From Octopus vulgaris (Eukaryota): a DNA stretch of 64,000 bases. Location: the NCBI GenBank assembly GCA_951406725.2, contig OX597818.1:79794001-79858000 (forward strand). The letters are read 5' to 3'. Numbering within the stretch: the stretch's first letter is position 1; every line of letters starts with the position of its first letter. Made by a program: the position numbers and the translations under genes. Shown here piece by piece: positions 3,249 to 55,637 of the stretch. The notes beneath the pieces are model-generated. The model made no database searches. It was not told where the DNA came from and saw only the letters and a list, made by a program, of their open reading frames with translations.

Positions 3249-4521
3249 CAGAAAGATAGAAAGAAAGAAATAAAGAAAGATAGAACATGCAAACAAACGA
3301 ACTCATTCAGTCAAACAAACAAACAAGCAAAAAGTTTTCTACAAATGTGTGTGTGTGTGAGTGTGCCCGTGTGTGAGCGTGCCCGCGCGCGCGTGTGTGT
3401 GTGTGTGTGTGTGTATGTGTGTGTGTGCGTGTGCATGTGTGTATATGTGTGTGTATTCACGAGTGCGTCGCGCGTGTAGATAGATAGATAGTTAGATAGA
3501 GAGGCGTTAGATTTAAACTGACACAGTGTAATTAACAAAATTTACCCATAGCAGACAATTTAGTTCTTGATTAGAAAAAGACAGTGCAATCCGGCAAGTG
3601 TCAGTCCTTTTGTAGACCTCATCAGAATCAGAGAAGTCACCCATAACTGTGTGTGTGCGTGCGTGTGTGTGTGTGTGTGCGCGCGTGTCTGTGTGTATGT
3701 GTGTATGTGTGTGTGTGTGTGTGTAACAGCTGATAAATTTTCACCGATGTACTCTAGTACTCTAGTTAATTACATGTGCAATATCGGATATAACTATAGA
3801 TATACCATCAATTGTACCATACTTTGTATAATTACCACATTGTTGAGCTTTTATAAAAAAGAACGTTTTACTGCTTTCATATTTTAGGGAAATTCCGAAC
3901 ACAAACAAACAGGTACACACACACACACACACACTTTTATGCGCTCCTACGCCGCTGAGGGTGATTTTGTTTCTTTTAAACTGTTGCGGGTGAACACCAG
4001 CAGAAATGAGATGAGCGCAAAGCAAATTACAGAGGGCCGATATTCTAGACAGTTTTTTTTTTTATTTATTTATGCGCCCTTTTCAAGCCTAGCCAGGTTC
4101 ACGGGCCCGGTTTCCCGGTTTCTGTGGCGTATGTGTTTCCCCCAGCTGGACGGGACGCCAGTCCATCGCAGCGTTACACAAGAAACAGGAAGAGAGAGAG
4201 TGAGGGAAAGTTGGGGCGAAAGAGTACAATAGGGGTCGACACCTACCCACCCCGCCGGAGCCTCGTGGAGCTTTAGGTGTTTTCGCTCAATAAACACACA
4301 CATCGCCCTAACCACTGTGCCATTGGGCTACTAGACGTAGTAGTTAGAGAAAAGGCAGAAAGGTGGGAGGAGGATGCACCAGTTGTGGGATTAGCTCATA
4401 GGTAGTGTCCAAGTGCTTCGAGAACAAATCATTATAGTAGATAGCATGTACGTGTGTGTGTGTGAGGGGGGGGAGAAAATGAGATGACAAAGGAATGAGC
4501 GATTATCTTACGAACTTCATT

Positions 4522-9399: not shown

Positions 9400-10480
9400 T
9401 GATAATATGTTTCAACTGTGTGAGGAGCTTTTCCCTTAACCAGTGTATTAGTGAGAGTCTTCTGTTTCTGCATTCGATGACAGCAAATATGTTTGTCCAT
9501 GTATATGTTTGAAGGGTTTAAAGTTAGTTTGTTCCTACACTTGACCTGGAGTGCATTTGTTACTTTGTTACTTCGCTGAATGGTGCTTCATCTTTAGAAA
9601 TCGTTGAGATTTGTTTGCTCAGGTTGGTACGTAGATCTCTAAGAGTGCATAGTGGGTGGTGTATACATCAGACTGAGTCGCTTGGTTTAATGTATGGTTG
9701 GAATCTTTCGTCGTTAAGGTGGAATGCTGACTATTTTAAGGTTCACGTCGTTGAATAGTTCGTTTATGCCTTTTCTTAACTTATTTGTTGGTTGCCCGTT
9801 TATATTTTTTAAAATTTCTAGACTGTCATCTCTATAAATTCCTCCGTTACTGGTGTGGAATTTGTTGTTTATTAAGCATAAAATGTATAATCCAATTAGA
9901 TCTGAAATTTCTGCGGAATTTCTGACTACCAGACTTACATAAAAGAGATTTGTGTTGTCTTTTTCCGATTCGTTTGCTGTCGTTATAGAAGAAAATTCTT
10001 TTCTTGGAGTGCATTATAATTTGTATGTTAGGGTCTGCCACAAGGTGGAGTTTTGTGAACTTTGTACCTTTTAGTAATTGCTATTTAGTGATGGGTGGAT
10101 AGAAGTCAATTATATCAAATTGGATGAATGTATATTCTTGCTTCTCTGCAATACGAATAAACCAACTTATAATTGAGGCGCTGTTATTCTAAAGTGCTCA
10201 ATGTGCTACTCAAGGACTTGTCAAAATGTTGTTCCTGAGTTTATCTTAAATGTTTTTACTAATTCTTCCTGATTTGGTTTTATATGGCTCTGGCTGCAAG
10301 GTTATCCATGAGGTTGGGATTATGGTCCTTGTGAGTTACGTAAGTATTTTTCTTTATGTGCGGAAACTCTTAAATTATTAGCTTTTCTAAGGCTCGTTAT
10401 TTATTTAATGTTAATAGATTTTTTGTCGTCTTCAGGGAAACTGTTTGTAAATTGATTATTGTAAATGTTAAAGTCCATTT
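9400..10480 (-). mobile_element. Degraded Penelope-like reverse transcriptase fragment
   Basis: Minus-strand manual translations FIQFDIIDFYPPIT (~10085-10130), GGIYRDDSL (~9820-9846) and FQPYIKPSD (~9675-9705) match PLE RT motifs; many stops. Confidence 0.7.
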
Positions 10481-14816: not shown

Positions 14817-14907
14817 TCCCTGAAGACGGAGGCTGGTGTTATCCGATGATGGAATCAATTTACAATCATTATTTTCGACCACATAGCCCCCAGAAACAGC
14901 CGTTGGA
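14817..14907 (+). ncRNA. Minimal hammerhead motif with extended stem II
   Basis: tcc-CTGAAGA-C-GGAGGCTG...TAGCCCCC-A-GAAAC-AGCC-GTT-gga; lies next to a (TA)n tract. Confidence 0.6.
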
Positions 14908-32317: not shown

Positions 32318-32319
<2 letters not shown>

Positions 32320-32673
32320 TAGCAGTATCGCCCGGCGTTGCTCGGGTTTGTAAGGGAAATAATTATAAAGCATTTTTAGAGAGTTATAGCCCAAAAATGG
32401 AAAAAAAATGATGGTAAATTTTTTTAGTTAAAAAGGTCGAGTTGCGTCCCCTAGACAGTCTGTGGTTTGTGTTTCTGATTGTTGACCCCATGTCGACTTT
32501 ATCGATTTTTTTCAGAACTGGGGGAACTTTTCAAAATTTTCGCTGCGTTAGTTTTGAATTAAGACATTGGGCTATGTGCGTGTCAAGTTTCATCAGAATC
32601 GGTTGAAAGCCGTGGTCAGGGTGAGGGTACAACCAAACAGACACACAGAAACACACACAGACAAACTGCCGTT

Positions 32674-32680
<7 letters not shown>
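32318..32680 (-). mobile_element. Non-autonomous Helitron-like element
   Basis: Minus-strand 3' end ...CCCGAGCAACGCCGGGCGATACTG-CTAGT (GC hairpin then CTAG); embedded in (TA)n with no TSD. Confidence 0.65.
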
Positions 32681-32732
<52 letters not shown>

Positions 32733-32769
32733 GATCAAAATAAAATAAAAACATGATGCGAAGGATTCA

Positions 32770-32847
32770 GCGGTACATATGTTTCGGGCCTTTATTAGAC
32801 AGATTTATAACAATGCATAATGTATGTCTGTGGCCTTCTTCAGCCGC
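32770..32847 (-). ncRNA. Minimal type-I hammerhead ribozyme (mirror of 33834-33911)
   Basis: Reverse complement of the + copy. Confidence 0.82.
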
Positions 32848-33833
32848 GCACAACAGCTTCTGCAAGGACATGCGTTACATCAAGAATTCTTGGTTGGGGA
32901 TGCAAATCCTCTCATTCACGTACGACATAATGCGGCAGCAGCATAGAATTGAAGCGTCCATCTCTTTCTTCTCTCAATGTGGAATGAGGAAAAAGTATGT
33001 AGTGATGGGCGCGCGTATATACATGTGAGCGTGTACGCGCGTAATGTCCGTGTATATATGCGGATATTCTGGTGTATGTATGTGTGTGTACGCGCGTGCG
33101 TGTGGGTGCGTGTGTGTTTATGTACGTGTTTACACGCGAGTGCGTGTGTATGCTTATATGCTTGGAGGCGTATATGTACGCGTATATGTGGGTGTATGTA
33201 TCCATGATGATATGTATGTACTAGTAGTCCACTCAATTCAAGGAACCAGATTAAATGCTCATCAGCTCTGATTTACAACGCATTAAGTCCCCAGACGAAA
33301 CTGTTGATTTACTGTTGATTTACTGACAATTCTACAACTAAATTTTATCAATCTCCTGACCACCATGCTTGGTCCGTAACCTCTATACATCCCTTATCTT
33401 TACATTCTTTTACACTTTTATCATGGTTTTATCAGATTTTTTTACTTTTATTCCTATTTCTATTTTTACTTTATAACCTTATGCCTTTACATTTATTTAC
33501 ATTTCTTTATATTTCTTTATACCCCCTTTACATCTCCTTACAACTCTTTATATCTTTATCCTCTACATTTTTATATTATTCTATACTTACACTTTTTATA
33601 CATTTTTTATCCCTCGTCCCGAACTCTCGCCCCTCCATCTTCACCTCTATATATGTATTTATTTATTTACATTACCTCAACATCCAATTTTCCTCATTCC
33701 ACATTGAGAGAAGAAAGAGATGGACGCTTCAATTCTATGCTGCTGCCGCATTATGTCGTACGTGAATGAGAGGATTTGCATCCCCAACCAAGAATTCTTG
33801 ATGTAACGCATGTCCTTGCGGAAGCTGTTGTGC

Positions 33834-33911
33834 GCGGCTGAAGAAGGCCACAGACATACATTATGCATTGTTATAAATCTGTCTAATAAAGGCCCGAAAC
33901 ATATGTACCGC
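33834..33911 (+). ncRNA. Minimal type-I hammerhead ribozyme, canonical core
   Basis: gcgg-CTGAAGA-A-GGCC...GGCC-C-GAAAC-ATAT-GTA-ccgc; perfect 4-bp stem I, palindromic ATAT loop III, predicted cleavage after A33907. Confidence 0.85.
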
Positions 33912-34018
33912 TGAATCCTTCGCATCATGTTTTTATTTTATTTTGATCAATTTACTCCACCACCTACACCACCAAACGGTATACACAGGTGCTTATAATT
34001 ATCAAGTACTCACCCCGA

Positions 34019-34068
<50 letters not shown>

Positions 34069-51316: not shown

Positions 51317-51728
51317 GTAGTCTATATTTATATTTATAGTTATGCGTACTTATATTTATTTTCTATTATACGTATTCTACTTATTGTATAACATTACTAT
51401 TTTATGTACACTCCTACATGTACACTGTTTTACCCTACATTATTATGTTTAACCTTATAGTGTCTTATGTAGTGGTTTAATAAAGTATGTGATTGAGTAT
51501 TATCTGGTAATTGATATTTGATTTCGATGTATTTCTCCATTTTCTTATTTTGTATTATGAATTTGTGGTAAAACATTTTACCTTTGCCCATATAATACAA
51601 TAAATGAATTAATTGTATCGTAATTCTTAACATTTATGTATTAACATTGTTGGGTACTTCACTAGAAGTATATTGGATATATGTTATCCCATGGAGGGTT
51701 GCATTTACAACCCCTATCTCAATTTGTA

Positions 51729-51772
<44 letters not shown>

Positions 51773-51898
51773 TTAGGTACAATAAATTCAGGGTGAATAC
51801 TTGATAAATGTAAGCACTTGTATATGCCAGCTAATAGCATGGGTGATAGAATATATGTATCAAATGAAATAAATGAAAAATAGGACACAAAGGATGTT

Positions 51899-51991
51899 GC
51901 AGTACATATGTTTCGGGCTTTATAGAACAACTTATTCTTACATCAATGCATAATCGACATAACAGATAGTTCAAAAGCCTTCTTCAGCCGC
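51899..51991 (-). ncRNA. Minimal hammerhead ribozyme, diverged relative of 33834-33911
   Basis: Minus strand: gcgg-CTGAAGA-A-GGCTTT-tGAAC...GTTC-tat-AAAGCC-C-GAAAC-ATAT-GTA-ctgc. Confidence 0.82.
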
Positions 51992-52187
51992 GTGCAATTG
52001 CTACACCAAAGACTTGTATCACATTATAAAAGGTTTGAGAAAAAAACATTTGGTATTGTTTATAATGGTAGGTAAACCGAGTATCATTGGGAAAGCATGT
52101 TAGTAAATCTTCATAGTCGTACATGGTATTATTAGACTCCAAAACAAATCGTCCATACCGTTTTTTCACTCGAGATAGAATGAATAC

Positions 52188-53037
52188 TCATTCAGATAAA
52201 ATGCTTAAATAGTCTTGACTATTGATTCTACCATGAAGGGAAACCATTGGGCCGGCGGATTTCCAAGATATAGCCCTCCCCCCGATCATCACATATTCTC
52301 CACCATATTTAACAGTTGGAAGAAGGCAGTCTGTGTCAAATGCTAACTTTGGCTGTCTCCACATGTATACTCGGCCGATGGTCGGAAATAAGGTAAATGA
52401 TGACTCGTCCGAGAAAATAACATTCTTCCACTGCTCTAGGGACCAATTCTGTAGGTTTTTACTCCACCCTAAACGCATCGCAACGTTTGTTTTGAAAGTA
52501 GTGATTTTCTGTTTGCAGCCCTCCCGTGAAATCCGGCTTTGAACAGCTCTTGGCGAAAAGTTTTTGTGGAAACTTGGTTCTCGGGGTGGTCATTAAGCTC
52601 TGCAGTAATTTTTGGAGTTGTACTTATGTGACCCTTTCTAACAATTCGCGTAAGAGTCCGACGGTCCCTTTCTGAAAGTTTTGGTTTTCTTCCGGAGTTT
52701 TGTTTCGACGAGGAGGTATTTCCCACGTTCTCAAAGGCTGTCATTACTTTCGAGACAGTACTTCTTGATACACCAAACATTTCGGTTGTTTTCTTTATGC
52801 TAGCGCCTGCCATACGAGCACCGACGATTTGACCGCTTTGAAAGTCGTTTTAATGAATTCTAATTACCTTTTTCTGATGATATCTGAAAAGACACAGCAA
52901 TTTTAGCAAAACATATTAAGCATCCCTAATAATATATAAAAAAACATGAAAATAAACAAGCTTTTGGCAGTTTTATAGATATTTTAAAATTATGATGCCA
53001 TGATGCTAGGTGTTTCCATTATTTTGTCCAACCCCTG
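52188..53037 (-). mobile_element. Tc1-like (DD34E) transposon, 5' half with one TIR
   Basis: TIR CAGGGGTTGGACAAAATAATGGAAACACC; FGVSRSTVSKV..SGRKPKLS and WKNVIFSDESSF..LLPTVKYGG motifs. Confidence 0.92.
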
Positions 53038-55049: not shown

Positions 55050-55637
55050 GCTTCTTTATTGCCCACAGGGCGCTAAACATAGATGGCACAAAGAAGGAAA
55101 GACAAAGGGATTAAGTCGATTATACCGACACCAGTGCACAACTGGTACTTATTTAATCGATCCCGAAAGGATGAAAGGCAAAGTCGACCTCGGCAGAATT
55201 TGAACTGGGAACGTAAAGACAGACGAAATACCTATTTCTTTACTACCCACAAGGGGCTAAACACAGAGAGGACAGACAAACGGATTAAGTCGATTATATC
55301 GACCCCAGTGCGTAACTGGTACTTATTTAATTGACCCGAAAGGATGAAAGACAAAGTCGACCTCGGCGGAATTTGAACTCAGAACGTACCGGCAGACGAA
55401 ATACCTATCCCTTTACTACCCACAAGGGGCTAAACATAGAGGGGACAAACAAGGAGAGACATAGGTATGAAGTCGATTACATCGACCCAAGTGCATAACT
55501 GGTACTTAATTTATCGACCCCGAAAGGATGAAAGGCAAAGTCGACCTCGGCGGAATTTGAACTCACAACGTAGCGGCAGACGAAATACCGTTAAGCATTT
55601 CGCCCGCCGCGCTAACGTTTCTGCCAGCTCGCCGCCC
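55050..55637 (-). repeat. Family-B SINE with three tandem ~175-bp body/tail units behind one head
   Basis: GAAAGGATGAAAG(G/A)CAAAGTCGACCTCGGC..GACGAAATACC recurs at ~55165, 55338 and 55522; the head CTGCCAGCTCGCCGCC occurs only once, at 55621-55636. Confidence 0.9.

Follow-up and report, generated by a model that had tools for sequence, protein, structure and literature searches.

An inverted pair of hammerhead motifs in Octopus vulgaris as the probable 5'-truncated end of a young Hydra-clade PLE

The inverted pair of hammerhead (HHR) motifs described here lies in a stretch of 64,000 nucleotides of the Octopus vulgaris genome (contig OX597818.1; hereafter the window) and is, with a probability of approximately 0.95, a non-coding insertion, truncated at its 5' end, that a young Hydra-clade Penelope-like element (PLE) has made in a (TA)n target. 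The whole insertion (32728-34023), sited in (TA)n, consists of a tailed 3' end and an inverted copy (Table 1), and the full explanation that we prefer, i.e., the stump of a Hydra-clade PLE with arms twin-primed from one RNA, is very likely correct. The family is a new one of a known class; the locus itself is an ordinary, dead stump.

Table 1. Features of the insertion, its hammerhead motifs and the related copy, in window coordinates.
Feature	Position	Strand	Remarks
Left flank	32676..32727		(TA)26 target microsatellite
Inverted 5'-truncated arm	32728..32993	(-)	266 nt; ends at the short end of the family
Type I HHR motif, mirror copy	32770..32847	(-)	predicted cleavage after A32774
Head-to-head junction	32994..32994		one untemplated A, relative to other copies
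Direct arm	32995..34023	(+)	5'-truncated, non-coding, tail included
Type I HHR motif	33834..33911	(+)
HHR stem I	33834-37/33908-11	(+)	4 bp, Watson-Crick
HHR CUGAAGA	33838-44	(+)
HHR A10.1 opposite C11.1	33845 / 33895	(+)	A·C instead of the usual G-C
HHR stem II	33846-49/33891-94	(+)	extension of ~40 nt
HHR GAAA	33896-99	(+)
HHR palindromic stem/loop III	33899-33906	(+)	loop ATAT
Tail	33954..34023	(+)	70 nt
Right flank	34024..34067		(TA)22 target microsatellite
Solo 3' end, older subfamily of the same lineage	51771..52188	(-)	5' extent at least to 52188
HHR of this relative	51899-51991	(-)

The initial annotation had described a young 266-bp inverted pair at 32728..33953. The pair was indeed recovered, its arms (32728-32993 and 33688-33953) being 266 nt long with a single mismatch at 32861/33820, but the extent was too short: the insertion continues past 33953 via the tail to 34023-34027, where (TA)22 follows and where the boundary is fuzzy, TATA being common to element and target. 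It had also escaped notice that the pair is a PLE end. Its interior is colinear with the 3' UTR of a PLE, the direct arm corresponding to the last ~1.03 kb of the element's 2.1-kb 3' UTR/pLTR. The outer end of the inverted arm lies ~46 nt beyond the cleavage site of its HHR, and its inner break corresponds to position 4351 of the unit, in a stop hot spot (15 of 64 arms). Compared with other copies, the junction at 32994 has neither microhomology nor a palindrome. A reading of 33235-33280 as a decayed ORF end was rejected, the ORF stopping ~1 kb upstream of the window's break. To the left of the TA target, 32319-32675 looks like a separate non-autonomous repeat, the ends of which we take, by resemblance, to be Helitron-like.

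The insertion belongs to a dispersed family. All 40 places scored (of 1,303 candidates) match 33235-33953 at 96-100%, and the window copy is 99.3% identical to its nearest sisters, in line with the recent insertion that had been claimed. The HHR core pattern gave 1,854 exact matches in the genome (reversed control, 0) and a looser pattern 6,912 (control, 4). At other loci this 3' end is preceded by a long ORF. Of 20 loci retrieved near the 5' part of this ORF, three (L081-L083) carry it uninterrupted from start to stop (836 aa), and in these source copies it lies downstream of pLTR, tail and leader. The unit measures 4,684 nt and comprises leader, ORF, 2.1-kb 3' UTR, HHR, short end and tail; in full-length and tandem copies (L081-L087) the tail sequence runs on as the 5' leader up to the ORF start. 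A pLTR resulting from a partial tandem, an inverted 5'-truncated copy and a tail are all present in the family. Contigs 90-100% alike to the arm occur in sequencing runs under four different organism labels and, therefore, the family is probably common to related species. None of the runs listed was of RNA, which says nothing for or against expression. When 32740-33060 was compared with contigs of four runs, the junction was unbridged among the 29 pieces listed, contigs being unable to show absence.

The protein encoded by the source copies outside the window (P0001, 836 aa) contains an RT, with YRDD present, followed by GIY-YIG. Its AlphaFold model (pLDDT 85) has telomerase RT (3du5) as top Foldseek match (E 7e-9), and only this fold search named it: sequence searches of the PDB were blank, and a Pfam search of P0001 gave no match to RT or GIY-YIG. 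Support for GIY-YIG is by motif since PF01541, found in 2 of 30 homologues, is absent from P0001 itself. In a 112-sequence alignment ADKT, CNCRCASEC, YIG, CQLC..E and N..E....CIH are kept, the GIY-YIG residues IY..YIG, R, H, E and N are (near-)invariant, and the EN motifs, at residues 696-825, are C-terminal to the RT. The RWK motif reads RWA in P0001 (homologues: R 99%, W 100%, K 75%). Homologues numbered 1,405 among 8,000 scored candidates, and those with a name among the 120 listed are from molluscs.

Placement in the Hydra clade is consistent with the fit of the motifs DKT, CxCX5C, YIG, CxxC..E and N..CxH to the diagnostics given in the available text of PMC8557442. As in this clade of C-terminal EN+ PLEs, which includes Hydra-1_Obim (Craig et al., 2021, PMC8557442), RT and GIY-YIG follow each other in one ORF, the DKT, CxCX5C, CxxC..E and N..CxH motifs are present, the target is (TA)n and an HHR lies near the 3' end; a 5'-truncated inverted copy is reported for Penelope-13_HM too (PMC8557442). 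However, the 4.68-kb unit with its 2.1-kb 3' UTR exceeds the published Hydra elements, which according to the same sections are generally under 3 kb, and the family differs from them in its 836-aa ORF with two low-complexity inserts, in RWA for RWK and in the 70-nt tail. The HHR of Hydra-1_Obim is also unlike that of the window, which has the ~40-nt stem II extension and the A·C; the two families are distinct. An assignment to Naiad/Chlamys PLEs, which have an N-terminal EN and no canonical HHR, was rejected, the EN being C-terminal and an HHR present. A match to the RT region of the element at 9732-10287 (-) of the window (tblastn, 33% identity, E 6e-16) is apparently the remnant of an older related PLE.

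A second Hydra-like family is very abundant in the genome (17,994 candidates, of which 150 were scored at 93-100%; L036:4111-6316 (-); L181-L210). At 26 out of 30 of its ORF ends the element finishes at (TA)n, ~520 nt past the stop codon, and these ends are without a CUGANGA core, carrying a CUGAAUA...GAAA look-alike only, in contrast to the canonical HHRs that are said to be universal in Hydra elements.

Both HHR copies, at 33834-33911 (+) and 32770-32847 (-), possess CUGAAGA, GAAA and U16.1-A17, i.e., the CUGANGA/GAAA/UH core with three stems that defines a type I HHR, with cleavage predicted after A33907. Their description as canonical holds for the core, the 4-bp stem I and the ATAT loop but not for the A·C at 10.1/11.1 or for stem III, which comprises 2 bp inside a perfect 8-nt palindrome, ACAUAUGU. 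The missing G10.1-C11.1 pair (A33845·C33895) is a common, not an obligatory, feature of HHRs; G-C occurs in subfamily F and in families G and H, and sister families have G-C or G·U. In the available text on PLE HHRs this pair is called “highly conserved” (PMC4209133; PMC6765202), and the Hydra HHR table also contains mismatches at 10.1/11.1, namely U·U (PMC8557442). The motif resembles the minimal, dimer-type PLE HHRs of these accounts in being of type I with a 4-bp stem I and a short palindromic stem III (PMC4209133; PMC6765202), and is unlike them in its long stem II extension. When the window was scanned on both strands for the type I layout, with at least 3 bp of stem I required, four matches resulted: the two arm copies, the relative (51903-51987) and a weak one at 14820. 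Rfam returned no HHR family, either at the gathering threshold (0 matches) or among 29 matches at E<=10, and the folding z-scores of the HHR pieces were unremarkable (-0.2 to +0.9).

The initial annotation had regarded a comparison with the relative at 51899-51991 as direct evidence of selection on RNA structure. The relative is present as described, in a copy whose long (tailed) end adjoins (TA)n at 51727-51770, but its interior, said to be largely rewritten, can be aligned: a shared block is surrounded by two insertions and one deletion. The compensatory change in stem II likewise exists, although it concerns a single pair, altered on both sides from C-G to U-A, so that as evidence of selection the two-sequence comparison amounts to one compensatory pair. 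Across subfamilies stem II follows a path of C-G, U·G and U-A. Better evidence that the RNA fold is kept by selection, as had been proposed, comes from the genome at large, where stems I and II change yet stay paired: across nine subfamilies, holding 112 of 119 distinct HHR sequences (the seven unassigned ones were omitted), stem I is paired in 35 of 36 positions (shuffles 19.6, slid 21) and stem II in 40 of 45 (shuffles 26.5, slid 15). These nine subfamilies represent about three lineages and, therefore, few independent events. In 21 aligned copies two-sided changes occur in all four stem I pairs, and the covariation score was reached by none of 500 shuffles, whereas measures counting pairs or pair types were not above shuffles (261 and 259 of 500). 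The alignment-based analysis covered stems I and III, because MAFFT misregistered stem II in this lineage; for stem II, pairs were counted with the sequences anchored on the core. The search patterns themselves make the core and loop III invariant and also partly fix the stem II letters of the window's lineage. These data support a hammerhead-type fold under selection in element lineages; any such selection acted on source elements and not on stumps such as that in the window.

It is a different question whether the two HHRs of the window are themselves active ribozymes under selection here, which we consider very unlikely. Their core nucleotides are intact, the fold covaries across families, and in an isolated 83-nt piece stem I (predicted probability 0.58) and stem II (about 0.7) form, with 0.17 for stem III. 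However, in each of the three wider contexts 33820-33925, 33760-33953 and 33688-34023 the predicted probability of stem I falls to 0-0.02, and the first of these is the very construct that had been proposed for in vitro cleavage. The two copies cannot pair in cis because they face opposite strands, and in a read-through transcript of the whole locus 78 out of 78 HHR nucleotides are predicted to pair with the other arm as a perfect duplex; the locus is thus not the good candidate for an active ribozyme that had been suggested. Stem III is unfavourable in a monomer, the palindrome having a predicted +2.4 kcal/mol as hairpin versus -7.0 kcal/mol as intermolecular duplex, and the A10.1·C11.1 mismatch also argues against activity. 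The intact motifs are explicable without local selection because the copy differs by only 0.7% from its sisters. According to the available text of PMC4209133, related minimal PLE HHRs showed no activity as monomers and weak activity as dimers or other multimers, and a review of PLE HHR dimers concurs (PMC6765202); the Anolis PLE HHR is reported to cut only with protein and to be dispensable for insertion (PMC11167929), and among Xenopus retrozyme dimers one of nine is reported to cut well (bioRxiv 10.64898/2026.07.22.740005). We infer that the HHR in the window copy is a passenger. In source transcripts the HHR would most likely cut as a dimer via the ACAUAUGU palindrome and/or aided by the element protein. 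The natural series of HHR variants, with A·C versus G-C at 10.1/11.1 and C-G, U·G and U-A in stem II, is usable for testing dimer- or protein-assisted cleavage.

The pair had been singled out as special, an assessment that the family as a whole does not sustain. Of the first 100 core matches listed, 44 lie in 22 divergent pairs less than 6.5 kb apart, which, by extrapolation, gives many hundreds of insertions of this type. A two-armed insertion is not obligatory, since over half of the listed HHR copies lack an HHR-bearing partner. Within the 30 pairs in which both arms passed a 190-nt coverage filter, the arms differ by a median of 1 and a mean of 1.8 per 210 nt, and the window pair is typical because its one mismatch equals this median. 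Any two of 110 copies differ by 6.6 per 210 nt. The arms in the window share 33808G, which none of 108 other copies has, and 33797C, found in 2 of 108. This likeness and the shared private variants indicate one template or later gene conversion.

A notable regularity of the family concerns its ends (Table 1 lists those of the window). Of 136 distinct HHR copies in the fetched loci, 135 have enough flank; in 70 the end is short and lies 26-58 nt past the cleavage site, in 59 it is long, at 98-133 nt, and six read through into the ORF leader, with a TA run adjoining 125 of the 129 non-read-through ends. All 39 divergent pairs found by script carry one short end (26-58 nt), its partner being long in 38 (115-133 nt) and, in one, a read-through that belongs to a tandem unit with a long far end. 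The chance of 38 mixed pairs is about 3e-12. Together with four pairs missed by the script's motif (L138, L257, L267 and L268), this gives 43 pairs out of 43 in which a short end is combined with a long one, and either arm may be the tailed one; pairs were chosen by position or similarity and not by their ends. Two inverted arms that consist of tail only (L039 and L087) also obey the rule, as do 15 out of 17 pairs in older or other HHR families, the exceptions being L221 (short/short) and L215 (ambiguous). Arm lengths and junctions are individual to each pair, from 24 nt to 4.5 kb. Among 32 simple junctions, a set that leaves out one tandem and six complex cases, 12 have a longer tailed arm, 10 have a longer short-ended arm, and the other 10 are symmetric; in nine the arms end within 10 nt of each other (shuffles 1.6), and in L142 both arms extend into the ORF.

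A tail at one end has already been published qualitatively; the strict rule is, as far as we found, unpublished. In the literature searched no statement of a strict tail rule or of PLE twin priming was found, older papers possibly containing one, and a search on octopus PLE hammerheads gave no statement of the end rule. The PLE insertion unit in print likewise has a direct 3' end, an inverted 5'-truncated copy and a tail at one end (PMC3846280; PMC8557442, Fig. 2 legend). In the available text that tail measures 30-40 bp and is called optional, or is said to be “often” present at one end, versus 70 nt, strictly one per pair (43/43) and on either arm in the window's family.

The end rule speaks for a model in which each of the two target strands is primed, at separate sites of a single RNA. 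We consider at slightly better than even odds that both arms were copied from one RNA by RT priming on both strands of the cut target. The GIY-YIG domain would cut both strands of (TA)n; one 3' end would prime at the long site, where the tail ends, and its counterpart at the short site, ~70 nt upstream of it. Both cDNAs would cross the hammerhead while it is still uncut and would stop either independently of each other or at the 5' end of the RNA, after which end joining would unite them head to head. This priming order is deduced from the end products of insertion. Since all inserted copies span the cleavage site, the template was uncut there or re-ligated. Two primings on one RNA would explain why short and long ends are strictly paired, why either arm may bear the tail, why the arms share variants and why stops can be symmetric, the last because both cDNAs run off the same 5' end; alternatively, the shared private variants could stem from gene conversion after insertion. 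In agreement with this model, in the Anolis PLE, a member of another clade, both strands are reported to be cut and extended and two RT start sites to bound the tail; against it, the start site is reported not to differ between strands in vitro (PMC11167929). Many solo copies (L101, L115, L119, L123, L254, L260 and L043) start at unit position 4311, an internal TA-rich run, which suggests, on sequence grounds, that they became joined on their 5' side through annealing with the (TA)n target.

The inverted arm could also stem from fold-back or self-priming, with either the new cDNA or an antisense template being copied and the short end being cut by the endonuclease during resolution of the intermediate; self-priming on an antisense template has been proposed (PMC3846280), and the available text of PMC8557442 attributes the tail to EN-mediated resolution. 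This route, which we regard as rather unlikely, predicts near-identical arms and explains the symmetric junctions (10 of 32) and those with a longer tailed arm, and it agrees with an 18-nt palindromic overlap in L010 and with a hairpin (-11.7 kcal/mol) into which the stop hot spot folds. However, the untailed arm is longer in 10 of the 32 junctions, by up to 4.3 kb, and reaches 5-9 nt further in three of the symmetric cases, which speaks against fold-back because a cDNA started at the tail cannot template such an arm, although a full-length antisense template would escape this objection. The junction in the window, moreover, has no palindrome or microhomology. A non-autonomous unit that moves as a whole, either MITE-like with 266-bp terminal inverted repeats or a retrozyme, is hardly credible. 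Long terminal inverted repeats and a TA context are indeed what a MITE-like unit would show, but each pair has its own junction and its own arm lengths (24 nt to 4.5 kb), the right end lies 70 nt past the repeat, and the interior is colinear with a PLE 3' UTR. Non-LTR retrozymes consist of tandem 170-400-nt HHR monomers without an ORF; at the locus there is no tandem array of HHR monomers, and the sequence is colinear with the PLE 3' UTR.

Priming of both target strands may be extended, tentatively and at somewhat less than even odds, to PLEs in general: an RT dimer positioned at the tail would prime both cut strands on one RNA, on either side of the tail, and copy overlapping sequence through an uncut or re-ligated hammerhead. 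The strict end rule, with either arm tailed, and the surplus of pairs whose arms have coinciding stops would be the record of this mechanism. If true, inverted ends and tails of PLEs would be explained in one step, and a young family with intact ORFs would make this directly testable. The Poseidon element PAc from Anolis, studied in vitro, similarly has two RT start sites that bound the tail, an AT-rich target and an HHR upstream of these sites (PMC11167929). Its tail lies inside the ORF and its HHR overlaps the start codon, whereas both are upstream of the ORF in the window's family, and pairing of the start sites within a single insertion is not reported in the available text of that study (PMC11167929). 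The formation of tandem and inverted PLE insertions has been named an open problem (PMC8557442). In the octopus family, two-armed insertions that are young and follow a sharp end rule number in the hundreds, and its uninterrupted ORFs suit the in vitro assay already built for the Anolis PLE.

Some further arrangements were observed. L083:2938-7355 is a unit-length copy that starts at approximately the short site, passes through tail, ORF and HHR and ends once more at the short site, a layout as expected, from its sequence, of a tandem or circular template. At G000:C1:57297032-57313394 three HHR copies in the same orientation are spaced 8.1 kb apart, which is probably a segmental tandem repeat. 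Within the window, a 173-bp unit is repeated in tandem at 55087-55589 (2.8 copies, 86% matches); the array looks like a common dispersed repeat.
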